Positions 14,369 through 40,510 of a stretch of DNA of 64,000 nucleotides are shown here, in pieces. The notes beneath the pieces are model-generated. The model saw nothing but the letters and a program-made list of their open reading frames with translations. It was not told where the DNA came from and did no database searches. A program made the position numbers and the translations under genes. The number at the start of each line of letters is the position of its first letter. Within the stretch, counting starts at the first letter, position 1. The stretch lies in sequence record NC_041936.1. One strand, 5' to 3'. This DNA is from Escherichia phage ECD7.

Positions 14369-14847
14369 GCTAAATCATTGCAATATTTTAGTGCCTTAGT
14401 TTGAAATTCTGCGCTGTTAAGTTCTTCATAACGGTCATAATCACCGTTTAATGCTGCCTTTCTTGCTTCTTGCTCTATCTGCATGTCAGACATGATAATA
14501 CAGCGATCCCGCGCTTTCATCTTCTCAAGTTGTATAGACTCTTCTTTCTGCTTGCGCAATTCTTCTTGACGCTTCTTTTCTTCTTGTGCTTTCTCTTCCC
14601 GCGCTTCTTTGATTGCATCCTTGAACATCTGCGTTTGTGGTGCTAAACCAACTTTAACGCGATCCACGTCTCGACGTTCCATTTTAGAAATAAAGCATGA
14701 TTCGATCTGATCATCACTTGCATATGCTGCTTTACATTCACGAAGCAAGAAAACCGGATCTGATTTAGCATTCATCATAGCTTCCATGTTGGCACAACCA
14801 GTAAGCATGAATGCAGCCGCAAGACCAATCAGTTTAATCATTTTCAT
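14362..14847 (-). CDS. predicted lipoprotein
   Basis: signal peptide with lipobox (..FMLTGCANM..), charged coiled-coil body. Confidence 0.6.
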   Translation of the reverse strand: MKMIKLIGLAAAFMLTGCANMEAMMNAKSDPVFLLRECKAAYASDDQIESCFISKMERRDVDRVKVGLAPQTQMFKDAIKEAREEKAQEEKKRQEELRKQKEESIQLEKMKARDRCIIMSDMQIEQEARKAALNGDYDRYEELNSAEFQTKALKYCNDLAK

Positions 14848-15668
14848 TTAGTCACCTCACCGAAAATTGTAAATTGTCTACGATTCTCATCGCCGAAAGA
14901 TTCTACTACGTCGTTTACCTTGACGCAAGTCCCGCGCGGTAAAATTACTTCACATTCGCAAGGGTTCCATGCAATTGACCCAACAACAAAACCTTTATGA
15001 TCTTTTACGTCAATTACCCATGATACATTACAAGAATGTTGCATCTTTCCGGTCATTGATTCATATCGATTCTCGCAATAAAGGCTAGTGCTGTTTGATA
15101 GCCATCCTCCAAAGATGATTGGTGTCATGCTGGTTGACACAAAGTTTTTAAAGGTAAATTCCTTATCTTCAATAATACGCTCTATTGTCTGAATGTCAAG
15201 ATGTTGACCGCGATAAAGAGTACCGTTTAACTTTTCGGTTTTATCCATGACACAATCCATCAAATCAACAATCTCTGATATCTCATCGGTCATGTCTTCT
15301 TCCCCTAAGAGAGCACCATTTACCCATTCGTATTGTTCGGACACATAATCACAGATTGCATTATATTCTGCTGGGGTTATGTTGTTATGTTTGTAATGTT
15401 TGAATACATTATCTCCAAAGTCTTCGGAGTGTACTTCATACATCACATTAATGATTTTCTTGACAAATCCATAATCTTGTGTCTCACGCTCAAGGAAGCG
15501 GATAACCTTCACATAATCATCAAAGTTAATCTGATCGCTGATCATCTCAGTGATCATGTAACCATTAATCCCCTCAATGTCATATGTTTCGATGTAATTA
15601 TCCATACGTTCCATCATTGATTCGCGTGATTCTTCTGAAAGACGAAAATCCTGTAATTTCTTGAACAT
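14844..15668 (-). CDS. Alt-like ADP-ribosyltransferase paralog
   Basis: 274 aa; shares YRGQ.., FKNFVSTS.., GGW and ECEVILPRG motifs with the C-terminal region of the adjacent Alt ORF (R-S-E ART signature). Confidence 0.7.
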   Translation of the reverse strand: MFKKLQDFRLSEESRESMMERMDNYIETYDIEGINGYMITEMISDQINFDDYVKVIRFLERETQDYGFVKKIINVMYEVHSEDFGDNVFKHYKHNNITPAEYNAICDYVSEQYEWVNGALLGEEDMTDEISEIVDLMDCVMDKTEKLNGTLYRGQHLDIQTIERIIEDKEFTFKNFVSTSMTPIIFGGWLSNSTSLYCENRYESMTGKMQHSCNVSWVIDVKDHKGFVVGSIAWNPCECEVILPRGTCVKVNDVVESFGDENRRQFTIFGEVTK

Positions 15669-15746: not shown

Positions 15747-17798
15747 TTACATTTTAAATTTATCTGGCATTGCGTCTACAGATACCAGATCAGCGATAAG
15801 CTGACGTAGAGTTGCCTTATCTGCTTTCTTACGTTCGGTTTTAGCTTCGCTAATGAAGCTGGAGAAAGACAGGTCAGAAGCAGGTTTAACAACACCCTCA
15901 CGGATGAATGCATCACCGTCCGCGATCATCTCACCAGATTCTTGTAATGCTGCCAGTTCACTTTTGTTCATAATATGTGCCTCAATGTAATAAGTTTCTT
16001 GTGAATCCGTCGATGCCGTAGCACGAGTTACCGTATCAAAGGATAACACAACACCGCGAGGAAGTAAAATCTCGCATTCTTTGTAAGCAAATGCTTTGTT
16101 ACCTACTGGCAATACAGGGATGTTTTCCGCGCCAGCGATAGAGAAAGCAACATTAGCGCCACCTTCACCGCGAGAGCCAGCCATAGAATCAACACCAGCA
16201 ACGGCACTAGCCACGTTTGCATTCCAGCCACCAAAAATATTAGGCGCAAGGGAAGTGCTCACATAGTTTTTAAAGTAAAACGCTTTTTGCTTACGTGCAG
16301 TTTCCCACATTTGCGACCGGAAGTCCATACCACGATACAGAATAGTACCCGGATCAAGTTTAACACCATAGTTAGAGAAGGCATTATCCAGTGCATCGCA
16401 CATCTTGACCAATTCTTCTGGATCTGCGATTCCCTCAAACTCTTCCAGCTTGCGATCAGTTAGGAAGTTGTTCATATTGATGTATGCTGCATCGGCATAT
16501 TCGCTCAACACAAAACCTTCCGCGCCCGGCAGATCAAGATCAATATCTGCCATCATTTCACCCATGTTGCTAGCAATTGCTTCAAACATACCGGACGCAA
16601 CATTACGAAGGGCATCGGTTTTAATCTGGGTGATATGACTACGCAGCATTTCAGCTTTTACATCTGCTGGCATAGACTGGTCTACTCGATCCATTGCCAG
16701 GGCGGTGATCTTGTTTTCGAATACTTCCTCGCTCATGATTTCTTTTAAGCGTTTGATTGAGGCTGCGATAACTTCCGCAGACAACGGATCATATTGATCC
16801 TGAACTTTTACCAGTTCGCTTACTGCGTATTTTGCATCGGCTTCGCTTTCAAAAATAGTACGCATGAAACCATAGCGAGTGATAATATCACTTGTCCAGT
16901 CATTCAGAGAACGGGCGGTTGAACGTTCTAAGGCTTGACGGTCAATCAGAGTATTAAACTGTTTCTTAGGTTCGGCTTCGGTGATATCTTCTTCCGGTTT
17001 AAGATTAATTTTTTCTGGATGATTCACGTAGTCGCTGTTATAGGTCGCTTGAGTTTTCAGCATTTCTTCTTTAGTCAAACGAGATTTAGCCGCTACGCGT
17101 TGTTCTGCTTCCGCGTTTCGTTCTTCTTCTGACACAAGACTAGCCGCATACGCCTCATCTTTAGTCAGAGATTCACCAGTAGCCTTAGATACCCAGCGAT
17201 CACCTAAATCACTTTCTACTTTAGTGAACAAGGATTCATCAAGTTTAATCCCTTTAATCTTATCAATCGCCATCCCGCGACGTTTGACAACAACTAAAGC
17301 GATCTTTTTGCTGGTCATTACTTCCTGCTGGAATACTTCAAACTTCGGTGTACGACGCACCAAACGCTCTATAACGCGCTTAACCAGTTCGGTCTTACCT
17401 TTCATGCGGGATACGTTAAAACGGAACATAACAGCGTCTAATTGCGCTTTACGGGCTGTTTCCATAACCACATCAAAAGCACTTGCCATAACTGCAATCG
17501 GGTTATCACCTAGACCATTTTTAAGCTGTACAATACGACCGCTTTTGTTCATTTCACACAGTACAACGTGTGCGGTCTTGTCACCCATACGAATAATTTT
17601 AGGTGTTTTGTTGGTGAAGTTGCAAAGACGGACAATCACATCTTTATCGCGTGTCTGTACTGCAAAAAGCTGTTTAGGATTCTGCTTAGGCTTTAAGCAT
17701 TGTACCGGAGCAATACTGCCAAAGTTTTCTTCCTCTTCCGTCAACAGCCATTTCTCGAAAGATTCAATCATTAGATCGTCGATTTCTAAGTTAAACAT
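15747..17798 (-). CDS. alt: Alt ADP-ribosyltransferase (internal head protein)
   Basis: 683 aa (T4 Alt about 682); LYRGMDF, FKNYVSTSLAPNIFGGW, ECEILLPRG; position between gene 54 and ligase. Confidence 0.85.
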   Translation of the reverse strand: MFNLEIDDLMIESFEKWLLTEEEENFGSIAPVQCLKPKQNPKQLFAVQTRDKDVIVRLCNFTNKTPKIIRMGDKTAHVVLCEMNKSGRIVQLKNGLGDNPIAVMASAFDVVMETARKAQLDAVMFRFNVSRMKGKTELVKRVIERLVRRTPKFEVFQQEVMTSKKIALVVVKRRGMAIDKIKGIKLDESLFTKVESDLGDRWVSKATGESLTKDEAYAASLVSEEERNAEAEQRVAAKSRLTKEEMLKTQATYNSDYVNHPEKINLKPEEDITEAEPKKQFNTLIDRQALERSTARSLNDWTSDIITRYGFMRTIFESEADAKYAVSELVKVQDQYDPLSAEVIAASIKRLKEIMSEEVFENKITALAMDRVDQSMPADVKAEMLRSHITQIKTDALRNVASGMFEAIASNMGEMMADIDLDLPGAEGFVLSEYADAAYINMNNFLTDRKLEEFEGIADPEELVKMCDALDNAFSNYGVKLDPGTILYRGMDFRSQMWETARKQKAFYFKNYVSTSLAPNIFGGWNANVASAVAGVDSMAGSRGEGGANVAFSIAGAENIPVLPVGNKAFAYKECEILLPRGVVLSFDTVTRATASTDSQETYYIEAHIMNKSELAALQESGEMIADGDAFIREGVVKPASDLSFSSFISEAKTERKKADKATLRQLIADLVSVDAMPDKFKM

Positions 17799-23783: not shown

Positions 23784-24079
23784 TTATAATGCTTTATATG
23801 CGTATTTCATAAATTTGTCTGCCACTTCATTGGCATGTTCAGATTCTACGCCTGATTCGAGAACAATAGCTAGGTCGGTTTCGTCATTCCCGCCGTACCA
23901 ATGATTTGATGTTCGATTTTTTTCAATTGGAAATTGGTCACTTTTATCTGTGCGACAAAATACATCTAAATGCTCGTCGATGTAAAAGATCCAATCTTCA
24001 TAAAGAATAACGGTATTAGCCAGATTTTTATTGCCTTCAACGAAAGGTTCGGCTACAAACAAATTAGTATGTTCCATAG
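23784..24079 (-). CDS. HxHW-family small protein (paralog 5)
   Basis: start set to ATG MEHTNLFV.. (SD GAGGAAAT); ..ILYEDWIFYIDEHLDV..SNHW..LAIVLE. Confidence 0.5.
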
Positions 24080-24093
24080 TAATTTCCTCAAAA

Positions 24094-24285
24094 TTATACA
24101 GCTTCGTAAACTTCCCAATGTCCAACACCAGCACGCTTAACGAAAAGGTTTTCTTTGATGTTATTCATAAACGTCTGGATGGATTTAATGCGGTTTGAAG
24201 GTTTCCATTCTTCGTTGGCATTGCGTCGATACATCATAACATTACCAGTTCGCTTATATTCAGCAACCATTTTAAGACCACACAT
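24094..24285 (-). CDS. hypothetical small protein
   Basis: 63-aa ORF in same transcription unit. Confidence 0.45.
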   Translation of the reverse strand: MCGLKMVAEYKRTGNVMMYRRNANEEWKPSNRIKSIQTFMNNIKENLFVKRAGVGHWEVYEAV

Positions 24286-24342
24286 AATATTATCCTCAAT
24301 TTGCGGGAGAGTATTACCCCTCCCAATGATTGTTATGTTATA

Positions 24343-24663
24343 TCACACAAAATGGCGTGTCAATGCTTCTTTTGCGGTTCCGCTAAGACTTTCGATCTCG
24401 CCTGGCATAACATCAACCGCCAGAACTTCTACAACATCCTCGGACCCTAACCAGTGAGTATGGCCTTTGTAGAACTTGATAACCAGACTACCTTCCTCGT
24501 CCCATTTAACGCTATCGCTAGCCCACCACACATCACCGTCGATAAAGTTGATGTAAAGCACACTACGCAACATTGAATTAATTACTTTCAATACTGCGCC
24601 TTTCATCTCTTCCACGGTATGGTCTTCCATTTTGAAGACCATACCTACCTGAACTTTTGCCAT
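24343..24663 (-). CDS. HxHW-family small protein (paralog 6)
   Basis: 106 aa; ..LYINFIDGDVWW..KGHTHWLGSEDVVEVLAVDV.. Confidence 0.55.
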   Translation of the reverse strand: MAKVQVGMVFKMEDHTVEEMKGAVLKVINSMLRSVLYINFIDGDVWWASDSVKWDEEGSLVIKFYKGHTHWLGSEDVVEVLAVDVMPGEIESLSGTAKEALTRHFV

Positions 24664-24680
24664 TTAGTCACCTCTCTTTA

Positions 24681-24860
24681 TTACATAACAATCACGCCAG
24701 CCGTTGAAAGTTGATGTTTCAACTGAGCATTTTCTGCTACCGTCAAATCAATGATTTCTTGTGACGCTGCAATCATATATCCATTGGTGATATTGTTTTG
24801 CATCAGTTCAATGGTTTCTTCGTTGTAGCGGATTTTAGCGATGATTTCGTTGAAGTTCAT
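24681..24860 (-). CDS. hypothetical 59-aa protein
   Basis: read by eye (MNFNEIIAKIRYNEETIELMQ...), ATG directly after promoter cassette. Confidence 0.45.
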   Translation of the reverse strand: MNFNEIIAKIRYNEETIELMQNNITNGYMIAASQEIIDLTVAENAQLKHQLSTAGVIVM

Positions 24861-24924
24861 GATTGATTCTCCTAGTTCGTTTCGGTATGTGTGTAGTATA
24901 GGGGATCTCCCGATCCCCTGTCAA
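24861..24924 (-). promoter_or_regulatory. early promoter cassette (PeSL-like) 9
   Basis: TTGACA, GGGGATCGGGAGATCCCC, TATACT, leader ..CCGAAACGAAC.., GGAGAATCAATCATG. Confidence 0.6.
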
Positions 24925-24933
24925 CAACTTTTT

Positions 24934-25245
24934 TTAAAGTTTTTCCATGATAACGGTCATAATTACATCTTCTGCGCGAGCGGTCAGATTATCAGCGTCA
25001 GCATGTGGGCGGTTGGTTGTTACAGAGATAACACCGTTGCGCACTGGTTTGATATTGATATCAAGATGATCCGCGAAACGTTCGCCAGTTACAGAATGAA
25101 TTTTGGTGTTAAATTCTTTTGCCAGTGCCTTGCGAACTTCACGAATCAGGGTAGCGTTTTTCAGTTGGTTCTCCGCGCTCATGGTCTTCTGGGTGTTCAT
25201 GGTTCCGTCGAAGTCAATCATTGGCAGCGTTACGATGTATTTCAT
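24934..25245 (-). CDS. hypothetical small early protein (VAKEFN family)
   Basis: 103 aa; LAKEFNTK block shared with 21641-21928; promoter cassette upstream. Confidence 0.55.
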   Translation of the reverse strand: MKYIVTLPMIDFDGTMNTQKTMSAENQLKNATLIREVRKALAKEFNTKIHSVTGERFADHLDINIKPVRNGVISVTTNRPHADADNLTARAEDVIMTVIMEKL

Positions 25246-25319
25246 TTTTGATTCTCCGTTTAAGAAAGTGTGTTTCGTTTTGATGTGTGTAGTATAGGGG
25301 ATACGTGATCCCCTGTCAA
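25246..25319 (-). promoter_or_regulatory. early promoter cassette (PeSL-like) 10
   Basis: TTGACA, GGGGATCACGTATCCCC, TATACT, leader, GGAGAATCAAAAATG. Confidence 0.6.
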
Positions 25320-25332
25320 CAACTTTTTTGAA

Positions 25333-25809
25333 TTATTTTTCTTGATGCTCGCGCTCGTACTTTTCGAAATAAAATTCTACTGGCTGGTCATGAATTGACA
25401 GCAAGCCAAAGCGTTTAGCCGCTCGCAATCCCATATTGCGCTGAATGTACTTCTGGAAGTTCTCGCGTATACACTTACGCCAGTATTCTAAGCCCATACA
25501 GCTTTTATAAAGATTGCATTGTACACACGCCGGATTCATGTTATCAAGTATATCATGTTCCGGTTTATGCATTCCTACAACCTTATACTTCCACGACCCA
25601 TCATCATTACGGGCAATTCGTCCATTTTCATCATAGACTACCTTTGAGCGTCGCAATACTGGTTTGATATGGTCTGCGTGCCAGCGATCCCCTAGTTCCT
25701 CGCCACAATAGGCACAACGCCCACCGTATTTCATTTTCAGGATCTGGCGTTGCTCTTTCTTTGACAATTTTTTAGGTTTAGGGGCTTTCGCCCCTTCATT
25801 ATCACACAT
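25333..25809 (-). CDS. HNH endonuclease (free-standing, homing-type)
   Basis: CAYCG..DRWHADHIKP..N..CVQCN: HNH motif with paired CxxC zinc knuckles; start overlaps ligase stop. Confidence 0.7.
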   Translation of the reverse strand: MCDNEGAKAPKPKKLSKKEQRQILKMKYGGRCAYCGEELGDRWHADHIKPVLRRSKVVYDENGRIARNDDGSWKYKVVGMHKPEHDILDNMNPACVQCNLYKSCMGLEYWRKCIRENFQKYIQRNMGLRAAKRFGLLSIHDQPVEFYFEKYEREHQEK

Positions 25810-27298
25810 CGAATACCTCTTTTACTGTATTTGCAGTGGTCTTGTCGTAGCGAATACGTTTGATGATTGGGAGAAATAAAGAGAACTCCGGTTCATCTTC
25901 TTTACGTGATTTGCTGCGGATATACCCGTTGCATGTCATCTCAATGACTTTTCCAATCAGGTTATGACGGTCAGTCCATAACATTTCTCGGTCGAGTTCA
26001 TTTCGACGATCGAACGGAATTACACGTTCAGTACCATCATCACCTTTTTCGGTTGTAGTGTCGGTTAATCCCGATCCGGTGTTAGTCATCATTCGTCCGC
26101 ACGCACTACGGACAGTAAAACCGCCTACCTTATTGGGGTCTTTACTATGCGGATATACATCAACAATTTCCGCGTCGAAGTCAATCACTTCTTTAAATTT
26201 AACCTGATCTTTACTACGGCGATCTTCAAATACACCATGTAAATTTTTAAGGATAATACCTTCTAAGCCCATGTTTACATAGCGATGATATACTTCGCGA
26301 GCTTCATCGATATTGTTAACTACAGTGTTTTCGATTATCTGAACACGAGGATCGTTAAGTTCTTCAACAATCTGTTTTAGCTCTTCGAATCGATCTTTAT
26401 ATTGCTTCGTTGCTTTCTCGTTTCCGTAATACACATCACGGTCGATAACATCCCAGACAGTGTAAACAATACATTGGGCTTCTTCTTTTGGAATAGTTCC
26501 TTTCAGTGATTTGTTGAGGATACCATTTCCGGTCTGACGATCTGCAACAACGGATTCTTTCACCGCTTCCGCTACTGGCGTTAATGGCATTTCCTCTTCT
26601 TCAAATATCCATGACAGAGTACCATCATAAACGCTCTCAACGAAGTTCTGCGCTGGTGTTTGCGAAAGGGTAGGCATATATACCAATTCGCCATCTAGAA
26701 CAATTCCACGGCCTCGTAGACTCTCTAAAACCGCAAACAAATCATCAAGCCCTTGATAGGTATTACCTGAACGGGTATAGATTGCTAATGTTTCCCCGTC
26801 AATATCAGCCATACCACGAGCGCCATCGCTTTTAAGTTGTGCATACGCCGGATATTTGATATTGGCAATGGTCTTATCAGAACATGACGATGCAAGGTGG
26901 CACGGCTGCTGGGGGATCAGTTTCTTCCATACCTTGTTTGCAGTGGTAGCGGAACAACCGCATTCCAGGTCACGATTCAGGACCATCATTGCAACTTTAG
27001 CATCATCTTCTGACAAGCAAGTCAGAGTATCGGTAACTAGCTGTAATGCTGCATTACCAGTTACTTGACGTGTGGCAAGTTTATTTTTAAAGACTTGTAA
27101 TGCACCGGATAAAGACAATACAGACGAATAGCGCGATGGTTTATCGTATTTCTTTACGCCAAACGTAACCTGTTTGCAATATGCCAGATAAAAGCATTCT
27201 TTCAGTGTTTCATTGCTTGCAGATTCTTTCAGGATCTTTTCTTTCAGCGATGTTTTGTCTGTTGCTGCAAGCTGATTAATGATATTAAGAATTGACAT
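25802..27298 (-). CDS. 30: ATP-dependent DNA ligase gp30
   Basis: ..KYPAYAQLKSDGARG.. (adenylation motif I KxDG), LTGNAA.., DLECG.. match recalled T4 ligase; start moved from track GTG to ATG (MSILNI..). Confidence 0.9.
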   Translation of the reverse strand: MSILNIINQLAATDKTSLKEKILKESASNETLKECFYLAYCKQVTFGVKKYDKPSRYSSVLSLSGALQVFKNKLATRQVTGNAALQLVTDTLTCLSEDDAKVAMMVLNRDLECGCSATTANKVWKKLIPQQPCHLASSCSDKTIANIKYPAYAQLKSDGARGMADIDGETLAIYTRSGNTYQGLDDLFAVLESLRGRGIVLDGELVYMPTLSQTPAQNFVESVYDGTLSWIFEEEEMPLTPVAEAVKESVVADRQTGNGILNKSLKGTIPKEEAQCIVYTVWDVIDRDVYYGNEKATKQYKDRFEELKQIVEELNDPRVQIIENTVVNNIDEAREVYHRYVNMGLEGIILKNLHGVFEDRRSKDQVKFKEVIDFDAEIVDVYPHSKDPNKVGGFTVRSACGRMMTNTGSGLTDTTTEKGDDGTERVIPFDRRNELDREMLWTDRHNLIGKVIEMTCNGYIRSKSRKEDEPEFSLFLPIIKRIRYDKTTANTVKEVFDV

Positions 27299-27764
27299 TT
27301 TCACCTCGTTTTGTTAAACGTTCACGAATATCATTGAGGATACTACAAAATTCTGATTCGGTCAATATGGTCTTTAACGGATCAGTTCCACCTATACTAT
27401 GACGTAATTTCTTATTTCCGGTAGCGAGTAATGCTTTACAAAATTCTGGGTTATTCCGTGCCATCGTAACAAATGCCAGGTGCACCAGTCTGTAATAATG
27501 CTCACTCATTCGATGAATCGGGCGACCCTGAAAATATAGCATGTGATTCTCAATCTTTTCAGTCCTTCCGGTTCTTTTTGCCTTGCCACCGTGCATCAAA
27601 AAGATTTCTCTTTGCTTTTCTGGATTCTTGAATCTTAATCCCTGTAAAAATCCTTCTGTGCTGTTAATATCGCAACCAAATAGACGGAATGGTCTTTTAT
27701 TGAAGTTGCTCAATTCACCCGATGGATAAGGTCCACCCGCATAGATATCAATTTCAGAAGTCAT
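27285..27764 (-). CDS. NADAR (YbiA/DUF1768)-like protein
   Basis: pattern ..IYAGGPYPSGELSNF..STEGFLQGLRF..KALLATGNKKLRH resembles recalled E. coli YbiA/NADAR family; assignment by pattern only. Confidence 0.5.
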   Translation of the reverse strand: MTSEIDIYAGGPYPSGELSNFNKRPFRLFGCDINSTEGFLQGLRFKNPEKQREIFLMHGGKAKRTGRTEKIENHMLYFQGRPIHRMSEHYYRLVHLAFVTMARNNPEFCKALLATGNKKLRHSIGGTDPLKTILTESEFCSILNDIRERLTKRGENVNS

Positions 27765-27918
27765 TGAAACTAATCTCGCTAATCATAGAGAACGGATCAT
27801 AATCGTCATGAGGAATATCGATAGTAATCGAATGAGGATTTACCCATACACCAAACTGGTCTTCTTCGGTGAATACTTCGGTATGGATTTCTTGGATGTT
27901 TACATTCATAGTTTTCAT
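27754..27918 (-). CDS. hypothetical 54-aa acidic protein
   Basis: read by eye (MKTMNVNIQEIHTEVF...), stop overlaps start of NADAR-like gene; weak. Confidence 0.3.
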   Translation of the reverse strand: MKTMNVNIQEIHTEVFTEEDQFGVWVNPHSITIDIPHDDYDPFSMISEISFNDF

Positions 27919-28000
27919 AATAAAAATTCCTTAATAATCAATAACTTACAAAATCATATAGCCAAAATATAGCGGGATTATTACCCGCCGTTTAAAATCA

Positions 28001-28324
28001 TTAACCGTAAACTACCACAATATTCTGTTTGTGCGTTACAGTCCATTTCAGGTCGATCTCTTCTTCCTTCTTAACGCCGTTAATAACGTCTGGATGAGGA
28101 ACTTTATTAAGTTTCCCATGAGGAAGCAATACAGTCTTGCCCAGCAATTCTTTATCAACGTTATCACCGATATCAATAATCTTACCGACTAAAGGAATCT
28201 CTCCCATAGTTCGTTTTTGCTCGATGATAATACCAAAATCGCTCTTTACTTCGGTCCCTGCGCTTTCCGCTTTAGCTTCAATGATCACATAGTCACCAAG
28301 TGCTTTAGGAGTTTTAACGGTCAT
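28001..28324 (-). CDS. 31: co-chaperonin gp31 (GroES-like)
   Basis: 107 aa; ..LGDYVIIE..GIIIEQKR..GKIIDIG.. GroES/gp31-like pattern; position between ligase and cd. Confidence 0.7.
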   Translation of the reverse strand: MTVKTPKALGDYVIIEAKAESAGTEVKSDFGIIIEQKRTMGEIPLVGKIIDIGDNVDKELLGKTVLLPHGKLNKVPHPDVINGVKKEEEIDLKWTVTHKQNIVVVYG

Positions 28325-28360
28325 AATTTTCTTACCTCTTCAATTCATCTCAATAGTAAA

Positions 28361-28972
28361 TTATTTATATTTCGCGACCTTTGGATTTCGCCGCAGACCG
28401 GAATGTATTTGCGCTATACAACAATAAGAAACATTAAACATATCAGCTATAATTTGCTTCTTAACTTTTCCTTTAAGCCGCATTATTTCTTCGACTTGCG
28501 CATTTGTCAGTTTTGCCCGTGAGTGGTTTTCACCGACATTGTTATTGAGTCCAGTTCTAAATGAATGTCTCATATTTTCTAGTAAGGTTACTATTTCTAG
28601 ATTCCACACATAATTGCAGGTTTTTACACCATTGATGTGATTAACCTCAAGTCCGGTAACGTCTCCTAGAAATGCATTTGCTACAAGTCGATGTATCTTT
28701 TCGGCTTTAACTGAGATTTTACCATTGTCTTTTTGTTTTGACAATGTTGAATAATAATATCCATATCGGTCTAAAATTGGTTTTATTATTTTACCAGCCC
28801 GTTTTTGTTTTACGAGCTTAATATTACCGGGAGAAACTTCTCTATAAAATTCGATACTTCGGTCAATAGATCTCAATCTACCATAATTAGAGATTTCATA
28901 CCACGGATAACCTACAGCTTGTCTCCATTCTTCCGGCGCTGGTAATACGATATTATCATCTTTTGTTTCCAT
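28361..28972 (-). CDS. HNH homing endonuclease with NUMOD4-like N-terminus
   Basis: WYEISNYGRLRS (NUMOD4-like), EVNHINGVKTCN (HNH), GENHSRAKLT; start set to ATG two codons inside the track TTG start. Confidence 0.7.
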   Translation of the reverse strand: METKDDNIVLPAPEEWRQAVGYPWYEISNYGRLRSIDRSIEFYREVSPGNIKLVKQKRAGKIIKPILDRYGYYYSTLSKQKDNGKISVKAEKIHRLVANAFLGDVTGLEVNHINGVKTCNYVWNLEIVTLLENMRHSFRTGLNNNVGENHSRAKLTNAQVEEIMRLKGKVKKQIIADMFNVSYCCIAQIHSGLRRNPKVAKYK

Positions 28973-28974
28973 TG

Positions 28975-29301
28975 TCAACTGCCACCGTAAATTTCAACGA
29001 TCTGCGCTGGAGTCAGCCCGTCTACATTAATCAGACTATCAAGCCCAATACTACGGAAACCTTCAACTGCAATTTCATATACTGGCAAAGATGTTTCTGA
29101 TTCTTTACGCGGTTTTTCAACATTAGGAACTAACCACTTTTCGTATGTTTCGAAAGGCATCAGTGCCGGATCTCGCGTAGCGATCATATCTCGGACAGTA
29201 CCATCTTTCTTAGTAAACTGCAAAGAGTGAGTACCGACAGAAAACATTTTCTTTAGTGCTTCACGAAGTGCGATATTATCAATTTGTTCAGTCATTATCA
29301 A
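28975..29301 (-). CDS. hypothetical protein
   Basis: 108-aa ORF between HNH gene and cd. Confidence 0.5.
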   Translation of the reverse strand: MIMTEQIDNIALREALKKMFSVGTHSLQFTKKDGTVRDMIATRDPALMPFETYEKWLVPNVEKPRKESETSLPVYEIAVEGFRSIGLDSLINVDGLTPAQIVEIYGGS

Positions 29302-29794
29302 TACCCTTCAAATCAGTCAATAATGCTTTTGGAATACGCGTAACCGTAATGTCGGCTTTATCCAAAATATCAGCCCAATCACACCCACCATTTCGATCAT
29401 ATGTGTCGCAATAGTATAGATGTTTAATTCCACTGTTTGCAATTGCTTTAGCGCAATCTGGACACGGTGAAGCAGTACACCACATACTAGCGCCTTCAAT
29501 CGATACACCGCTACGGGCAGCAAACAAAATAGCATTTAATTCAGCATGGATCTCGTTTTTCTGTGACCATGCACTATGTTCTGGTCGTTTTTCTGGGATC
29601 ATTTTGCCGTCATCATCCAGCCAACCGCTTTTATGTGCATGACAGCTACAATTTACTTGCCCTGCTGGAGTGCCGTTAAATCCAGTAGAAATGATTCGCC
29701 CGTCTTTTTCGATCAGTGCGCCTACCTTCCACGAAACGCATTTAGAGTTCTTTGCGATTAGATAGGCGATCTGCATGTAAGTTTGTGACAACAT
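29288..29794 (-). CDS. cd: dCMP deaminase
   Basis: zinc-binding deaminase motifs HAELNAI and PCPDCAKAI; GALIEKDGRIISTGFNGTPAG matches recalled T4 Cd. Confidence 0.85.
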   Translation of the reverse strand: MLSQTYMQIAYLIAKNSKCVSWKVGALIEKDGRIISTGFNGTPAGQVNCSCHAHKSGWLDDDGKMIPEKRPEHSAWSQKNEIHAELNAILFAARSGVSIEGASMWCTASPCPDCAKAIANSGIKHLYYCDTYDRNGGCDWADILDKADITVTRIPKALLTDLKGIDND

Positions 29795-29815
29795 AATATA
29801 ATCCTCACATATTAA

Positions 29816-30019
29816 TTAACCGTATACGCGAAAGTATTCTACCGATCCGTCACTATACTGTTTTACATTGAATGTATTCACACCATGATCATTGCTCATA
29901 ATGACATATACACTGCGACGCTCATCACCAAACGGGTTAACTGGTGCGGGTTCAATTTCAACATTAAAACCACGTTTAGCAAGTGCTTCGCCTAATTGCT
30001 TGAGTTTATCGGTAAACAT
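29816..30019 (-). CDS. hypothetical small protein
   Basis: 67-aa ORF, ATGA-type junction with pseT. Confidence 0.5.
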   Translation of the reverse strand: MFTDKLKQLGEALAKRGFNVEIEPAPVNPFGDERRSVYVIMSNDHGVNTFNVKQYSDGSVEYFRVYG

Positions 30020-30897
30020 TAAAAGTCTCCGTAGTTAACCTGAAAACATTCTACACCAATTGAGCGGTACATGTCAACCACTTGATCACGGTCATCTACT
30101 GCCAAAACAACATGATAACGCGGTGCAATTTCAGAGAAGAAAATCTCTTTCTTTACTTCATGATCAGGACGACGATCATTAGTTTCACGTTGAAAGTGAT
30201 CACTAGGTTCGATACCTTGTTCACGCAACCATTGCAGAGTATCTTCTTCGCAAACATCCTCACGTCCTGAGCATGTAATGATACGATAACCATTATCACG
30301 ATACAGTTTAAGCATTTCGATCACTTGCGGACGCGGTTTATCTTCTTTGACCTTTGTCCAGTCAAACGGATGACGACCGCCCTTATCCGCTAATGTCCCA
30401 TCAATATCAAAGATCACTGCCTTTGGCAGCATGGTATTCGGTTTGTATACTTCTTGACCCATATATTCCTGCATCAGATAAAATTGGTTACGCAAATGAG
30501 ATAGCGGAATTGCTTTCTCTCCGCGATAGAAATTACGTTTCTTTAGTGTCTCAAATGATTCATTGAACACTTGCTCAGTATACACCGCGTTAAATTCTTT
30601 TGCAAGTTCTTTATAGAATACACGATGTTTTTCTTTCAGGTTAGTATCAGAGATAATGATACTTAATCCGCGTGATAGAGTCTCGCGAGCAATCATTCTC
30701 TGAATAGACTCTACCAGCTTTTCTTTTTCCTTAGTATACTTGTATTTCAAAAGTGAGTCAACACCAAACAACATAAGACGAAGATCATCACGATTCACAT
30801 TACGATAATTACTAAACCGTTTACATGTTTCCATAGCCCATGTAGTTTTACCGGACCCAGAACAACCAACGGTTAAAATCACTTCACATTTCGGCAT
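30019..30897 (-). CDS. pseT: polynucleotide 5-prime kinase / 3-prime phosphatase
   Basis: P-loop GCSGSGKTTW; HAD phosphatase motif AVIFDIDGTLA; C-terminus ..IGVECFQVNYGDF matches T4 Pnk; start set to ATG (MPKCEV..) with AAGGAG SD. Confidence 0.85.
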   Translation of the reverse strand: MPKCEVILTVGCSGSGKTTWAMETCKRFSNYRNVNRDDLRLMLFGVDSLLKYKYTKEKEKLVESIQRMIARETLSRGLSIIISDTNLKEKHRVFYKELAKEFNAVYTEQVFNESFETLKKRNFYRGEKAIPLSHLRNQFYLMQEYMGQEVYKPNTMLPKAVIFDIDGTLADKGGRHPFDWTKVKEDKPRPQVIEMLKLYRDNGYRIITCSGREDVCEEDTLQWLREQGIEPSDHFQRETNDRRPDHEVKKEIFFSEIAPRYHVVLAVDDRDQVVDMYRSIGVECFQVNYGDF

Positions 30898-31349
30898 TAT
30901 TTCTCCTTCGGTTTGCACCGTTCCTCATTAAGTTCTTTGCGATAATAACACATGATCAACTTACTTTCAAGTGTATATCTCTTAATATCCGCAAGCCAGA
31001 CTCTGAATTTTTGGGAGTCCTCCCACGACATAGAAACTCTAGGTTTACCGTCTATTGTATCCACTTTCAGGTCAATGTCAACTTTTTCTATTGGTGCTGG
31101 TAGTGGAGGATGTAATTTCGGTTCCTGTGAATAATGGTCCATTGTACACGAAGAAAGAGCAAATACAATAGGTACAGCGAAGACATGGATTATGGCGGTC
31201 TGAAAATTCTTATGTGCTTTCTTAAACATCCAGTGTATCACGAAAATTGAAAACACCATCAGGATAATAATGCTTGCACCTATCCCCAGATAATCAACCA
31301 GATTAAAATTGCTTATCTGCTCTTGCGTAGGCAATATTTCTATGCTCAT
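30897..31349 (-). CDS. hypothetical membrane protein
   Basis: 150 aa with two hydrophobic helices; TAATG overlap with pseT. Confidence 0.55.
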   Translation of the reverse strand: MSIEILPTQEQISNFNLVDYLGIGASIIILMVFSIFVIHWMFKKAHKNFQTAIIHVFAVPIVFALSSCTMDHYSQEPKLHPPLPAPIEKVDIDLKVDTIDGKPRVSMSWEDSQKFRVWLADIKRYTLESKLIMCYYRKELNEERCKPKEK

Positions 31350-31669
31350 TTAGTAGCCTCCTTTAATTCTTCGGTAAACTCCTTAAATGAATCATTAAGC
31401 TGTTTCTCTACCAACTTGGGTTTTTGTGCTACTACATAGCCTCGTGTAGCGTCTTTCATTGCTTTGTTTTGTTCTTCTGCAAACTTAGTTCTTATTCCGT
31501 ACATCTCCTTTTGTAGTGAGTCTACAACCTTCATCTTTTCATCTGTCTTTTTCTTATACTCTGTAAATTCCTGATTCAGTCGATCTACCTCCTTTTTATT
31601 TTCCCACCACATATTGCCACCTACCCCCAGCAACACAGATATGATAACAATGTATATCAGCTTTGACAT
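31346..31669 (-). CDS. hypothetical membrane-anchored coiled-coil protein
   Basis: start set to ATG MSKLIYIVIISVLL (N-terminal TM), charged coiled-coil tail. Confidence 0.5.
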   Translation of the reverse strand: MSKLIYIVIISVLLGVGGNMWWENKKEVDRLNQEFTEYKKKTDEKMKVVDSLQKEMYGIRTKFAEEQNKAMKDATRGYVVAQKPKLVEKQLNDSFKEFTEELKEATK

Positions 31670-31713
31670 ATTACCCCCAACGACAAAAGGCGGGGAACTA
31701 GCCCCGCTTATTA

Positions 31714-32883
31714 TTACCAATCAATCTTATCAGCCGGAATCAGTTTCTTATAATTCCGTAGATAGTAAGTTTTCATTGAAGCCAGAATACGGTCATAATC
31801 AAGACCATCAAATGCAATCATCAGACACATGAAAATATATGATTGTGCATCACCATGTTTACGTGATTCGATAGTCGCATTGGATGCATATGTCTTTCTG
31901 TCTTCTCCCGCGTGTGCGTTATAAAATTCTGTTGCTGTCGTAAAGGCATTGCGAAGAATGGACCTGAATGCTTCCTCGAATAGCTCGATTCGTTCCAGTG
32001 CTTCCGGTTCGCCTTCATATGCAGCACGCAAATCATCGGTTTCGCTTTCTACGACATAGTAGATCAGGTTATTAGGAAACATCGATGTGTTTTTAATGTT
32101 ATGCACACCAATATACCATTCACTCTTCACCTTGAACATTTGACCGTCTTTAGTGCGTGCAACAATTCCTTCGATACCTTCTGCGGTCCGAACTTCATCA
32201 AGAATATTGCTAAAACGCGCTGAATCAACCTGTAACGCATTTACCAGATGAGGACGTAGGATTGCGTCAGAAAATAGCATTTGATGCGGTACGTACTCTC
32301 CTGTGACGTTATGGCGTACATTCAGAAGTGTTAGCGACGGTTCAGAATATTCTACAACAATTCGGTTGCTGGGTGCTGTATATTCAAAGTTGAAAGTATA
32401 ATCAGATCCAATATCGGCGATCTTAGCGCGTAGATCCGCATACTTCTCTGAATACAGAAGACCGTTTGCTCTCTCTGCCTGGCTTGAGTACAAGGCCGCT
32501 TTAGACTTCAACTGAACATAGCCGTTATCAATGTATGTGCTTACTAGACTACCGTCCATTTTGTCCATGACCATTTCCACATCTTCCGGCTTAAAGCGAG
32601 CGCGATCATTCTCACCTAAATTAAAAAACTTCTCCATAGGACGAGATGCAATGCGGACAGGTCGGTCTTTATCATCGATTTCAAACATGATCCCGCGACA
32701 CTCTAACGCATCTGGTTTATTCCACATTTCCGGTTTGCTCAAGTACAGATAACTAAAAATGCGCATACGGGTTTGCATCGCCGTAATTTCATCTTTGTAA
32801 TAGAACGTATCAGATCCGTCACATAGTGTCATCAGATTTTTGAACAATGCTAAAACTTTTTTGTTGTTTTCTTTTGTTGACAT
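31714..32883 (-). CDS. rnlA: RNA ligase 1
   Basis: ..PDALECRGIMFE..RPVRIASRPMEKFFNL..DKMDGSLVSTY.. matches recalled T4 Rnl1 including the nucleotidyltransferase lysine motif. Confidence 0.85.
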   Translation of the reverse strand: MSTKENNKKVLALFKNLMTLCDGSDTFYYKDEITAMQTRMRIFSYLYLSKPEMWNKPDALECRGIMFEIDDKDRPVRIASRPMEKFFNLGENDRARFKPEDVEMVMDKMDGSLVSTYIDNGYVQLKSKAALYSSQAERANGLLYSEKYADLRAKIADIGSDYTFNFEYTAPSNRIVVEYSEPSLTLLNVRHNVTGEYVPHQMLFSDAILRPHLVNALQVDSARFSNILDEVRTAEGIEGIVARTKDGQMFKVKSEWYIGVHNIKNTSMFPNNLIYYVVESETDDLRAAYEGEPEALERIELFEEAFRSILRNAFTTATEFYNAHAGEDRKTYASNATIESRKHGDAQSYIFMCLMIAFDGLDYDRILASMKTYYLRNYKKLIPADKIDW

Positions 32884-33280
32884 AATTTGTGTTCCACTCT
32901 GGTTTAAATTTGGTGATCAAAACAGGTTCTTCGATATCGGCAGTGCTTATAATATCCTTACCTGTTGGATTTTCTATGTACAACTCAAAGCACTGGCGGT
33001 AATAGAATGTTACTGTCTTCCCTTCCTCTAGCGCCTTATGAATATTCTTACTCTTGCGAGTATCCGCCGTTGGTGTCTGTCTGTTAATGCTAGTCCGGTA
33101 ATAATTGATCCGCTTTCTGAGATTAACAGTCTGACCAATGTATACCAGTTCATCATCAACCGCAATAGCGTAAAGAACATTTAAACGGTTCTTCTGAGGC
33201 GGTAGAATCACATCACCATCTTTACACTCTAAACATGAATATTTAACGAATCCATAGTTTTCTATTAGCTCATTAATCAT
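32819..33280 (-). CDS. denA: endonuclease II (GIY-YIG)
   Basis: ..NVLYAIAVDDELVYIGQTVNLRKRINYYRT.. GIY-YIG motif; matches recalled T4 DenA; follows rnlA as in T4. Confidence 0.75.
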   Translation of the reverse strand: MINELIENYGFVKYSCLECKDGDVILPPQKNRLNVLYAIAVDDELVYIGQTVNLRKRINYYRTSINRQTPTADTRKSKNIHKALEEGKTVTFYYRQCFELYIENPTGKDIISTADIEEPVLITKFKPEWNTNYVNKRKQQKSFSIVQKSDDTM

Positions 33281-33300
33281 TATCCTTTCCTCACGTCACA

Positions 33301-33324
33301 ACAAAGGCGGGATTTCTCCCGCCC
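33301..33324 (-). terminator. rho-independent terminator
   Basis: GGCGGGAGAAATCCCGCC hairpin then TTTGTTGT on minus strand. Confidence 0.5.
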
Positions 33325-33330
33325 ACCTTA

Positions 33331-33729
33331 TTAACTTTCCAGAATATCGCGAGCTTCGTTACGCTCCTTGATGATTTTCAGGACAAATTCCAGTTTTTCT
33401 TTGTTCAGTGTTCCGTTTTCCATTGCTTCTTTGACGGTAAACACTCCGCCACCTTGCCCGTATACAGTGACAGTGATTTCACCTAACATCGTGGTATGAA
33501 AACCGCCAATTTTCGGTGATTCGAACGAAACAATCACCTCGCGGACAGTATTACCGTCGTTGATTTCTGAGAGGGTAATGTCGTTTTTGTAGGCGGTTGC
33601 CTTAACCATACGGATCAGCATAGTCTGATCTGGGGAGATGGTCATTTTGTCCATTGCATGTTGCAATGCAGCGTAACCGAAAACTTTAACGAAGTCCAGA
33701 ACGTCTTTGCGAGTTTGAAATTTAATCAT
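33331..33729 (-). CDS. hypothetical early protein
   Basis: 132 aa, promoter cassette upstream, terminator downstream. Confidence 0.55.
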   Translation of the reverse strand: MIKFQTRKDVLDFVKVFGYAALQHAMDKMTISPDQTMLIRMVKATAYKNDITLSEINDGNTVREVIVSFESPKIGGFHTTMLGEITVTVYGQGGGVFTVKEAMENGTLNKEKLEFVLKIIKERNEARDILES

Positions 33730-33799
33730 CTTGATACTCCTTAGTAAGTTAGTTTCGTTTCGATGGGGGTATATTACTACCCCCGTTCCATGCTGTCAA
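33730..33799 (-). promoter_or_regulatory. early promoter cassette (PeSL-like) 11
   Basis: TTGACA, spacer, GGGGGTAGTAATATACCCCC inverted repeat overlapping -10, leader CATCGAAACGAAAC. Confidence 0.5.
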
Positions 33800-34018
33800 C
33801 TACTTTTTAATGACAAGTTCGAATTTTGCTACCTTGCGTCCTCGTTTATTGAAAGCAACCCACGGACGGGTTTCAATGTAGAACAATTCTTCACCAATAA
33901 TGAATACTGGCTGATTGTAAAGGCGACCCATCAGGTCACGCTGGCGAATGGTAGTAGATTCGTATACTTCGCCTACTACAAAGTGTTTGCTGATAGAGTC
34001 GGTGCAGATAAATTTCAT
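33800..34018 (-). CDS. hypothetical small early protein
   Basis: 72 aa, promoter cassette upstream. Confidence 0.5.
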   Translation of the reverse strand: MKFICTDSISKHFVVGEVYESTTIRQRDLMGRLYNQPVFIIGEELFYIETRPWVAFNKRGRKVAKFELVIKK

Positions 34019-34080
34019 TTTGATTCTCCTTTGTTTCGTTTCGATGGGAGTATCTTACTACCCCCGTTATTCAGTGTCAA
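34019..34080 (-). promoter_or_regulatory. early promoter cassette (PeSL-like) 12
   Basis: TTGACA, GGGGGTAGTAAGATACTCCC, leader CATCGAAACGAAAC, GGAGAATCAAAATG. Confidence 0.5.
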
Positions 34081-34088
34081 CTACTTTT

Positions 34089-34307
34089 TTACTTGTTGTA
34101 TTCATTCCACCATTGGGTGAGCTTATCAATTATTTTTGTGTTTCTATCCAACTTATCCCACCGTTTTCGAGGGTTTATCAACCGGAATAGGTAAGGTGTA
34201 CTTGTTAAGTGGACTCGGTCAATATAGTGATTGATGTACTGTTTTTCGATTCTAAGTTTCATCTTTTTACGATGAAAATATGCAATAACTTGTTCTTCTG
34301 TTTCCAT
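34089..34307 (-). CDS. hypothetical small early protein
   Basis: 72 aa, promoter cassette upstream. Confidence 0.5.
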   Translation of the reverse strand: METEEQVIAYFHRKKMKLRIEKQYINHYIDRVHLTSTPYLFRLINPRKRWDKLDRNTKIIDKLTQWWNEYNK

Positions 34308-34360
34308 ATGTTCCTCCGTTTCGATGTGCGTATTATGCTATGGCAAGATCCGATTGTCAA
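34308..34360 (-). promoter_or_regulatory. early promoter cassette 13
   Basis: TTGACA, 17 bp, CATAAT, leader ..CATCGAAACGGAGGAACATATG. Confidence 0.5.
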
Positions 34361-34370
34361 CGCCCAATAA

Positions 34371-34396
34371 CAAAAAAGTCGCCACTATGGGCGACT
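34371..34396 (-). terminator. rho-independent terminator
   Basis: AGTCGCCCATAGTGGCGACT hairpin then TTTTTTGTTATT on minus strand. Confidence 0.6.
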
Positions 34397-34407
34397 TTGA
34401 ACAAACA

Positions 34408-34884
34408 TTAATCATGACCGTGATTGGCAATGTCCGCGCGTGTCTTATCTTTGTGATTTCCTACGTCAAAGACACGATAGCCGTTTTCTCTAAGAACTTT
34501 AATCACTTCTGGGTTATCCTCAAAGACTCCGACAACTTCATCTTTATCAAAGGATTTAATTACCTCTAATTTGATGTGATAGTCTTTACGGGAATCATTG
34601 CGACCTCTCATAAAGATTTTATCGAAACACACATCATTAGCGATCAGCCATTCCACCGTTTCTATGTAAGCATGTGAACTTCGTCCGGTGAGGATGTAAA
34701 TCAAATGCCCGTTGTCGGAAAGAGCATTAATAACACGGATTACATCGTAAATGGGGGAATCTCCCCCACATGCCTTGTTATATTCGATCCATGACTCGAC
34801 TTTATCAAGATTTTCGGTTGGCATCTTTGCTAGTCGATGTGTTGGATCTGTGATCGTAAAATCTAAATCGACAAAATATATCAT
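34408..34884 (-). CDS. HAD-superfamily phosphatase-like protein
   Basis: DxDxT motif (IYFVDLDFTITD) and ..YILTGRS.. resemble HAD motifs I and II. Confidence 0.55.
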   Translation of the reverse strand: MIYFVDLDFTITDPTHRLAKMPTENLDKVESWIEYNKACGGDSPIYDVIRVINALSDNGHLIYILTGRSSHAYIETVEWLIANDVCFDKIFMRGRNDSRKDYHIKLEVIKSFDKDEVVGVFEDNPEVIKVLRENGYRVFDVGNHKDKTRADIANHGHD

Positions 34885-36041
34885 AGATATTTCCCGAATC
34901 GGTTGTAGTCATCGTCTGTTAAATCGGTATTAACCTGAGATACCAGATACATAATCTCTACTTCTTGCGCCGCGTTTTGAACTTCGTCAGAGTTTAACCA
35001 CTTACGCATCCACGGTAAAGGATGACGACGAACACTAAACGGGCTTTTCAGTCCGGCAGCACGCATACGGGAATCTGCCAGGTATTCTACATAGGTTTTC
35101 AGAATTTCCGGTGACAGGTTAGGAATTGCCCCCATTGCGAATAAGTGGTCTACCCATTCTTTTTCTTGCTCGACAACATCCAGAAAGATTTTCGTTGCTT
35201 CGTCTTCAAGTTCTTCCGCAATCTGTTTCCACTCATCACCGTCAGCCCCCGTTTGCCATTGACGAATAATGTATTGTGTGCCTTTTAAGTGAAGTTGTTC
35301 ATCACGCGCAATAAATTTCATGATCTTCGCGTTACCTTCAAGTAAACCACGTTCGGCAAAGCTGAAAGTACATGCAAAGGAAACATAGAAACGGATTGCT
35401 TCCAGTGCATTAACGCAGTGTGCACACAGATAAATCGAAGCCATCAGATCTCGTTTTGTATCTTCAAAAAATCTTCTTGCATCATCTAATGCTGTCTGGT
35501 CGTCTCGTTCTTCCCAATAGCGGAGATCTTCTTTTGCATTCTCATACTTACGAATCCAATAAAGAACATCGTCATAGTATTGCCCGATAGATTCCGCTCG
35601 CTTCATGATAGCAGGGTTATCGATGATCTGGTCAAACTCACTAGCCGGATCAATAAAACAGTTACGCATAATGTGAGTATAACTGCGGCTATGAATTGTC
35701 TCGCTGAATGTCCATGTTTGCAACCATGTATCGAGAGTCGGATCAGATACAATTGGACCAAATGCTGCGGACGGTGCGCGACCTTGAATAGAATCAAGCA
35801 ATGTCTGATACTTCAAGTTTTCTGTAAAGAAACGTTTTTCAACATCGCCCATATTCAGATATTGAATGCGGTCGGTTGCAAGTGAAATCTCTTCTGGACG
35901 CCAGAAAAATGACAATTGCTTTTCGATCAGTTCTTCAAATACTTGATGACGCTGAATATCATAGCGAGCGATACCCAACCCACTACCCAGAAACATCGGT
36001 TCGTTCATAATATCAACATGTTCGCGGTTAAATACGCTCAT
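34881..36041 (-). CDS. nrdB: ribonucleotide reductase small subunit
   Basis: 386 aa; ferritin-like diiron pattern (..EAIRFYVSFA.., ..ARDEQLHL..); adjacent to nrdA. Confidence 0.9.
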   Translation of the reverse strand: MSVFNREHVDIMNEPMFLGSGLGIARYDIQRHQVFEELIEKQLSFFWRPEEISLATDRIQYLNMGDVEKRFFTENLKYQTLLDSIQGRAPSAAFGPIVSDPTLDTWLQTWTFSETIHSRSYTHIMRNCFIDPASEFDQIIDNPAIMKRAESIGQYYDDVLYWIRKYENAKEDLRYWEERDDQTALDDARRFFEDTKRDLMASIYLCAHCVNALEAIRFYVSFACTFSFAERGLLEGNAKIMKFIARDEQLHLKGTQYIIRQWQTGADGDEWKQIAEELEDEATKIFLDVVEQEKEWVDHLFAMGAIPNLSPEILKTYVEYLADSRMRAAGLKSPFSVRRHPLPWMRKWLNSDEVQNAAQEVEIMYLVSQVNTDLTDDDYNRFGKYL

Positions 36042-36056
36042 TAATTCACCTCACTA

Positions 36057-36224
36057 TCACTTTTTAACACAAAAGAACTTAGTATTTCTGTTTATTTCGA
36101 TATCCTGTTGCAACTCCTGCACGGCTTCAAAACAACTTTGATGTGATGAAAACTCTACGCTGGTAACAGTTCCTTTATTATATGACCCGACACTAACGGA
36201 AAGCAATAACCATAATGTAGCCAT
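36057..36224 (-). CDS. hypothetical 55-aa protein (tandem paralog a)
   Basis: read by eye: MATLWLLLSVSVGSYNKGTVTSVEFSSHQSCFEAVQELQQ...; TAATG overlap with paralog b. Confidence 0.4.
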   Translation of the reverse strand: MATLWLLLSVSVGSYNKGTVTSVEFSSHQSCFEAVQELQQDIEINRNTKFFCVKK

Positions 36225-36397
36225 TAGTTCACCTTCTGCTTTTCAATGCAATACAGATTCATAAAGCGTTTATTGTCTTCGCGTATAATCTCGCGAGCTT
36301 TAACGCAATCCTGCTTTGTTGCAAATTCAATGCTTGACATATTTCCGTAATTATACATTGAATTGCTTATTGCAATCAATAACCATACAGTAGCCAT
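36224..36397 (-). CDS. hypothetical 57-aa protein (tandem paralog b)
   Basis: read by eye: MATVWLLIAISNSMYNYGNMSSIEFATKQDCVKAREII... Confidence 0.4.
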   Translation of the reverse strand: MATVWLLIAISNSMYNYGNMSSIEFATKQDCVKAREIIREDNKRFMNLYCIEKQKVN

Positions 36398-36564
36398 TAT
36401 CCGACAACCTCAAAACATTTATCATCAGGAAGAATAGCCCATTCTACGCCGTATTCATCCTTAACGTAGTAGCAAGTCCCATCATGTCGAGCATCATATT
36501 CATCACCGACAACAAAGCTATCAGCTAGTTCAAAATCTACAGCAACACATTTTAATTTGGTCAT
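36397..36564 (-). CDS. hypothetical small early protein
   Basis: start set to ATG MTKLKCVAV.. just downstream of promoter cassette. Confidence 0.45.
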   Translation of the reverse strand: MTKLKCVAVDFELADSFVVGDEYDARHDGTCYYVKDEYGVEWAILPDDKCFEVVG

Positions 36565-36624
36565 AATAAAATCCTCACTTGTTTTTGATGGTTGTATTAT
36601 AGCGGGGATTTCTCCCCGCGTCAA
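36565..36624 (-). promoter_or_regulatory. early promoter cassette (PeSL-like) 14
   Basis: TTGACG, spacer with GCGGGGAGAAATCCCCGC palindrome, TATAAT, between nrdA and small genes. Confidence 0.5.
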
Positions 36625-36632
36625 CACTTATT

Positions 36633-40509: not shown

Positions 40510-40510
40510 G

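Follow-up and report, generated by a model that had tools for sequence, protein, structure and literature searches.

The guanine-ADP-ribose (G-ADPr) made by DarT1 is hydrolyzed by NADARs (Schuller et al. 2023, PMC11543638). According to de Souza and Aravind, the gp30.3 proteins constitute the phage branch of these enzymes, which is marked by a His residue where YbiA-type proteins have a Glu and DarG1-type proteins an Asp (summarized in PMC11125620 and PMC11543638). One characterized member is the product of T4 gene 30.3. In vitro, it is active on DNA carrying G-ADPr and inactive on T-ADPr, and it does not rescue the toxicity of DarT1 in uninfected cells (2024 Toxins paper, PMC11125620).

Johannesman et al. 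(Nat Commun 2025, PMC11825919), who worked with phages Bas35-47, T2, T4, T6 and RB69, traced the ability of T-even phages to resist DarTG1 to gene 30.3, which they renamed adfN. T4 without adfN is sensitive to DarTG1, and purified T4 AdfN strips ADP-ribose from DarT1-modified DNA. The protein is impaired by the E36A and K43A substitutions, of which K43A is only partly defective, and by the C-terminal truncation found in RB69. T4 AdfN does not counter DarTG2 (PMC11825919), and phage NADARs leave the thymidine modification introduced by DarT2 in place (PMC11825919, PMC11125620). Full function of T4 AdfN was seen only during T-even infection, which led to the suggestion of an unknown phage partner (PMC11825919). 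A literature search for Krischvirus in combination with DarTG returned no paper, and both RB49 and Krischvirus are absent from the supplement of PMC11125620.

Gene 30.3 and its neighborhood

The DNA analyzed here is a stretch of 64 kb (the window). Its list of open reading frames contains a single ORF at exactly 27285-27764, a minus-strand frame with an ATG start and a product of 159 amino acids. All motifs quoted in the initial annotation of this DNA, which did not give the strand, are present: GELSNF at residues 16-21, STEGFLQGLRF at residues 35-45 and ALLATGNKKLRH at residues 111-122. Compared with RB49, the codon differences in this ORF are 18 synonymous and 2 non-synonymous, and compared with phage MIZ4, which encodes a 100% identical protein, they are 11 synonymous and 0 non-synonymous. 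The same comparison shows no frameshift in gene 30.3 of either phage, and the gene is intact in 58 close phage genomes at a protein identity of at least 95%. The ORF is a real gene that is under purifying selection.

A megablast search with positions 25300-29400 returned 58 phage records, nearly all of them at 95-99% identity and all belonging to Krischvirus (RB49-like) coliphages. Judging by these matches, the window is from a Krischvirus, an RB49-like phage of E. coli. The RB49 record places Krischvirus in the Straboviridae, outside the Tevenvirinae. In RB49 (AY343333), the orthologous gene is named '30.3: gp30.3 conserved hypothetical protein' and the gene order is cd - 31.1 - 31 - ORF215c - 30.3 - 30, while in most phage records the NADAR gene is labeled 'hypothetical protein'. 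The coding sequence at 27285-27764 (minus strand, stop codon included) is assigned as a gp30.3/AdfN ortholog, a phage-type NADAR, on the basis of the ORF itself, its Pfam match, its homology to the T4 protein, the RB49 annotation and the predicted NADAR fold.

The gene sits within a tightly packed minus-strand block, and its position between genes 31 and 30 is conserved, as evidenced by the RB49 annotation, the T4 locus and the gene content of the window. Its neighbors are a 54-residue ORF, gene 31, the DNA ligase gene and an HNH endonuclease gene. The 54-residue ORF (27754-27918, minus strand), which corresponds to phrog_15277, a PHROGs entry without an assigned function, ends 11 nt inside the NADAR gene and overlaps its start codon (27754-27764, minus strand). 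On the other side, the gene adjoins the DNA ligase gene (gene 30), in agreement with the initial annotation. The ligase ATG at 27298 is located within the last 14 nt of the NADAR ORF (overlap at 27285-27298, minus strand) and is preceded by a GAGG Shine-Dalgarno sequence inside the NADAR 3' end; the annotation of RB49 shows this arrangement as well. This overlap suggests co-transcription and translational coupling of the two genes.

A functional tie between the NADAR and the adjoining ligase was considered and rejected, as four small ORFs part gene 30.3 from gene 30 in T4. Moreover, there would be no mechanistic reason to invoke a ligase because the glycosidic removal of a base adduct should leave no nick to seal. 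As far as the compared loci tell, the adjacency is a matter of gene order: the four small ORFs that T4 has between 30.3 and 30 are missing from Krischvirus.

A terminator-like GC hairpin followed by a T-run, found by a consensus scan and in the sequence, lies just after gene 31 (27971-27989, minus strand), although such sites are not enriched over shuffled sequences. It may tentatively be taken as the upstream edge of a transcription unit that consists of the 54-residue ORF, 30.3 and 30. The same scan gave 17 promoter-like sites, where shuffled sequences gave 12.4 ± 3.7, and terminators in about the number expected by chance. A scan of positions 24000-41000 against Rfam gave no match.

Several other features of the region deserve mention in their own right. 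A homing-endonuclease ORF of 205 residues with NUMOD4 and HNH_3 domains (28361-28978, minus strand) is located between genes 31 and 31.1, which are adjacent in RB49, where this ORF is missing. As it is variably present, matches with a coverage of about 84% occur among Krischvirus genomes. The pattern is indicative of a mobile insertion whose presence differs among Krischvirus genomes. A second HNH endonuclease ORF (25333-25809, minus strand, 158 residues, phrog_2118) shares 8 nt with the 3' end of the ligase gene and has a counterpart in RB49, ORF212c. The homolog of gene 31.1 (28975-29301, minus strand) has a WYL_2 / Sm-like SH3 fold (PF10902) and is called 'tail fiber(s) protein' in several phage records, which is probably a propagated mis-annotation. 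Finally, the thymidylate synthase ORF (38944-40176, minus strand, 410 residues) has a match to PF00303 that is divided into two parts, one of which aligns profile positions 110-266 with residues 254-410. The split implies an in-frame insertion of about 130 residues in the middle of the enzyme, and the same length is annotated in phage MIZ4. No Rfam intron was found in the 24000-41000 range, which holds this ORF.

Family and fold of the protein

The protein matches PF08010 (Phage_30_3) over profile positions 2-138 of 138 with an E-value of 1.5e-39 and a score of 135.4 bits, the gathering cut-off of this family being 36 bits. T4 gp30.3, translated from the T4 record, scores 229.5 bits against the same profile, and this is the sole Pfam family that it matches. 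In a BLASTP alignment, residues 3-150 of the window protein and residues 2-151 of T4 gp30.3 are 39% identical, with 54% positives (E=2e-29). The family is large: a tblastn search located it in 1508 phage records, and an exhaustive HMMER search gave 987 cluster representatives at 50% identity.

The initial annotation had called the protein a YbiA-like NADAR and had proposed a search with the canonical NADAR profile, PF08719, as a check. This profile is the second Pfam match of the protein, but its E-value of 0.012 and score of 16.3 bits, which is below the cut-off of 35.1 bits, do not make it a significant one. We regard this result as a false negative and not as a refutation because the proven T4 AdfN also matches PF08010 only and because the fold is unambiguous. 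The assignment to NADARs holds at the level of the fold, but within them the protein is a member of the phage gp30.3 branch and not of the YbiA/PF08719 branch. In other libraries, the protein corresponds to phrog_652, a PHROGs entry without an assigned function, and matches the NCBIfam model 'NADAR family anti-phage protein' faintly (E=0.015). The PADLOC models matched neither the window protein nor T4 AdfN, so that this library is uninformative here.

An AlphaFold2 (AF2) model computed from a 12-sequence alignment has a pLDDT of 94.2 and a pTM of 0.89. In a structure comparison, the model scored 12.1 with E. coli YbiA (2B3W), 12.0 with the Phytophthora NADAR in complex with ADP-ribose (8BAU, PnNADAR) and 9.9 with the DarG1 NADAR of Geobacter lovleyi (8BAT), and the next match scored 4.1. 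Foldseek gave E=2.9e-6 and a TM-score of 0.65 for YbiA, and E=7e-4 and a TM-score of 0.64 for 8BAU. These three structures were also reported for T4 gp30.3 (PMC11825919). A search of PDB sequences with a profile of 74 family members ranked YbiA (E=4.4e-4) and 8BAU first, and the SNF motif, the Glu and the Lys are aligned in both matches. The window protein is thus unambiguously predicted to have the NADAR (YbiA) alpha+beta fold.

A different protein, the D-alanine ligase DltA, was at the top of a phmmer search of the PDB with the single sequence (7VHV_D, E=4.3e-4, residues 45-151) and was also hit faintly in NCBIfam (E=0.059). We judged this similarity to be due to chance since DltA is missed by both family profiles, A2 and A3, which put YbiA and PnNADAR first.

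The architectures of gp30.3-type NADARs vary among seven relatives (P0020, P0022, P0024, P0044, P0053, P0062 and P0086), which include tandem NADAR duplications and N-terminal regions of about 320 residues without a Pfam match that precede the NADAR domain. The domain is fused to a calcineurin-like metallophosphatase in P0062 and to BspA-type leucine-rich repeats in P0053. Furthermore, two PF08010 genes are located on a contig of Candidatus Falkowbacteria (CPR; L004), at a distance of 2.3 kb from each other (2089-2691 and 5001-5669) and with Nudix, RNase T and HD genes in their vicinity. No evident DarT-like toxin gene was found beside these two genes on the contig. Since this contig carries PF08010 genes, the 'phage' branch of NADARs is also cellular.

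Active-site residues

The residues known to be important in other NADARs were located by alignment, and the conservation of the respective columns was counted in 167 sampled family sequences. Glu37 (codon GAA, 27654-27656, minus strand) is equivalent to the catalytic Glu36 of T4 AdfN, as seen in the pairwise alignment, and to E88 of the E. coli C7 NADAR. This column contains a Glu in 161 of the 167 sequences, and it is aligned to the Glu of YbiA and PnNADAR in the profile-to-PDB matches.

His122 (codon CAT, 27399-27401, minus strand), which is the signature of phage NADARs, is located in the KLRHSIGG motif on the last beta-strand, as seen both in the alignment and in the AF2 model, where the strand comprises residues 119-121/122. 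A His occupies this column in 158 of the 167 sequences and is invariant in the family alignment A2. The profile alignments to 2B3W and 8BAU stop one residue short of it. The C-terminal alpha-helix (residues 136-157 of the AF2 model, 27294-27359, minus strand) is the counterpart of the helix that is absent from the frameshifted RB69 allele. It is intact here, as the alignment with the T4 protein reaches the last residue of the latter.

The seventh position after the Glu is the site of the catalytic, phosphate-coordinating Lys (T4 K43, C7 K95). A basic residue is present at this position, but it is an arginine, Arg44 (codon AGA, 27633-27635, minus strand), instead of the lysine. The column contains Lys in 152 sequences, Arg in 9 (about 5%), other residues in 4 and gaps in 2. 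Six or more diverged family lineages have an Arg here while retaining both the Glu and the His. RB49 has Arg44 as well, and the residue is fixed in Krischvirus under purifying selection.

Proposed function and alternatives

The most likely explanation, to which we assign a probability of about 0.75, is that the ORF is the Krischvirus ortholog of T4 gene 30.3 (adfN) and that its product, a NADAR-fold N-glycosidase, has an anti-DarTG1 role. The protein would be a stand-alone, 'orphan antitoxin-like' enzyme of the phage gp30.3 branch, probably made from one minus-strand block together with gene 31, the 54-residue ORF and the DNA ligase. It would cut the bond between ADP-ribose and guanine N2 in phage DNA that has been modified by the host DarT1. 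Such a cleavage would restore a replicable template and allow the phage to grow on E. coli that carries DarTG1. By analogy with the experiments on T4 AdfN and other NADARs, we infer that the enzyme is active, that it is specific for guanine and that it confers the anti-DarTG1 phenotype.

The initial annotation had put the protein forward as a candidate for DNA de-ADP-ribosylation and a factor against DarTG, a proposal that is supported by the PF08010 score, the homology to T4 AdfN and the published T4 data (PMC11825919, PMC11125620). Its target has to be narrowed, as the T4 ortholog acts against DarTG1, which modifies guanine, but not against DarTG2, whose DarT2 modifies thymidine. The AdfN role is weakened by the identity to the T4 protein of only 39% and by the lack of a significant PF08719 or PADLOC match. 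Another point against it is the replacement of the lysine by Arg44, given the behavior of the C7 K95R variant described below. Furthermore, the putative T-even phage partner of AdfN may be absent here because Krischvirus is outside the Tevenvirinae.

The alternative that survives best, albeit as an unlikely one, is that the protein is an attenuated or specificity-shifted NADAR, which may hydrolyze G-ADPr in vitro but, owing to Arg44, does not protect effectively against the DarTG1 systems studied so far. Instead, it may be adapted to another DarT1 variant or to another ADP-ribosylated nucleic-acid adduct. This possibility is raised by the Arg at the Lys site itself and by the K95R substitution in the C7 NADAR, which retained G-ADPr hydrolysis in vitro but lost the rescue from DarT1 in cells (PMC11543638, Schuller et al.). 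In addition, NADAR subfamilies differ in their substrate ranges, with cytidine-ADPr being removed by only some of them (PMC12945103). However, even K43A leaves T4 AdfN only partly defective, and Arg44 is probably tolerated rather than disabling because it recurs in diverged lineages with the Glu and the His retained and is fixed under purifying selection. Its effect in vivo is not predictable from the sequence. A related proposal, that Arg44 marks a functionally distinct subgroup of gp30.3-type NADARs tuned to another DarT1 variant, ADP-ribosylated base or RNA, has about a one-in-ten feel to it, that is, it is rather improbable. If true, it would offer a natural handle on the substrate and in vivo specificity of NADARs, which workers in the field regard as unexplained.

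Less probable still is a main substrate other than DNA, namely ADP-ribosylated RNA or small ADP-ribose derivatives that serve as immune signals or toxins. A general proposal of this kind has been made for the NADAR and Macro domains of phages (PMC9503650), and G-ADPr on RNA is also removed by every NADAR family assayed (PMC12945103). The inability of T4 AdfN to detoxify DarT1 in uninfected cells could be read in the same way. On the other hand, the deletion makes T4 sensitive to DarTG1 and the enzyme takes ADP-ribose off DNA, and the neighborhood of the NADAR gene shows no NAD-salvage, SLOG, Macro or Nudix genes.

The initial annotation had also pointed to two ADP-ribosyltransferases (ARTs) in the window. 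Both are indeed PF03496 proteins, Alt (15747-17798, minus strand, 683 residues) and an Alt-like ART (14844-15668, minus strand, 274 residues), but although encoded on the same strand, they are not next to the NADAR gene, being 9.5-12.9 kb away. In the Alt family, the acceptor residue is arginine. That the NADAR balances or reverses the ADP-ribosylation by these two transferases is very improbable. The early co-expression of NADAR and ART genes in T4-like phages (Iyer et al. 2022, PMC9503650) would fit such a role, but Alt-family enzymes modify proteins (PMC9503650), whereas the reported NADAR targets are base-linked N-glycosidic adducts on guanine and, for some subfamilies, on cytosine. Moreover, the NADAR and ART genes are neither adjacent nor a conserved pair, and DarT1 alone accounts for the T4 phenotype. 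We found no result or literature that ties NADAR activity to ADP-ribosylation of proteins by Alt-type enzymes, and the 'wider ADP-ribose economy' that had been envisaged is speculation.

Finally, a YbiA-type metabolic N-glycosidase acting on intermediates of the riboflavin pathway is the least probable of all, as the best structural match, E. coli YbiA, is outweighed by the His in place of the YbiA-defining Glu of the last strand, the PF08719 score below threshold, the lack of a riboflavin gene context and the demonstrated anti-defense role of the ortholog.

The proposed AdfN function is the published, already known function of the T4 ortholog, and the gene is an ordinary one for a T4-like genome, apart from the natural Arg44 variant. 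The main value of the analysis is in annotation, as 'hypothetical protein' records could become adfN/NADAR. Should the Arg44 variant behave otherwise than T4 AdfN, it might shed light on the large differences in vivo among NADARs that have the same activity in vitro; this is a modest follow-up and not a new system.

Comparison with known systems

YbiA and the canonical NADARs (PF08719; 2B3W, 8BAU) differ from the window protein in the profile that recognizes them, which the latter matches well below the cut-off, and the Glu of the last strand that defines the YbiA subfamily is replaced by His122. YbiA has been tied to the cleavage of riboflavin intermediates and to a LexA-controlled operon, and not to phage counter-defense (PMC11125620).

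The NADARs of DarG1 from E. coli C7 and Geobacter lovleyi (8BAT; PMC11543638) have a catalytic Asp in the last strand, where the window protein has His122. Their additional N-terminal structural elements are absent from the window protein, which has 159 residues versus 219, and no DarT1 gene is adjacent to its gene. For its part, T4 AdfN is no substitute for DarG1 in uninfected cells (PMC11825919).

AdfN(Bas32) and AdfN(Bas60), which were acquired independently by T5-like and Vequintavirinae phages (PMC11825919), are orphan phage NADARs with a guanine-specific role against DarTG1, a role that the window protein would share by analogy. Both fall into NADAR branches other than that of gp30.3, with which they do not cluster, and they neutralize DarT1 without phage infection, in contrast to the gp30.3-type enzyme of T4.

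T4 AdfN is the experimentally characterized homolog. It has Lys43 where the window protein has Arg44, it lacks the 8 additional C-terminal residues found here, and its gene is parted from gene 30 by four small ORFs, whereas the window gene overlaps that of the ligase. The phage analyzed here is a Krischvirus, outside the Tevenvirinae. Nonetheless, the two proteins share the PF08010 family, full-length homology at 39% identity, a size that corresponds to the NADAR core only, the catalytic Glu, the phage-type His and the C-terminal helix, and both genes are orphans located between genes 31 and 30 with no toxin gene alongside.
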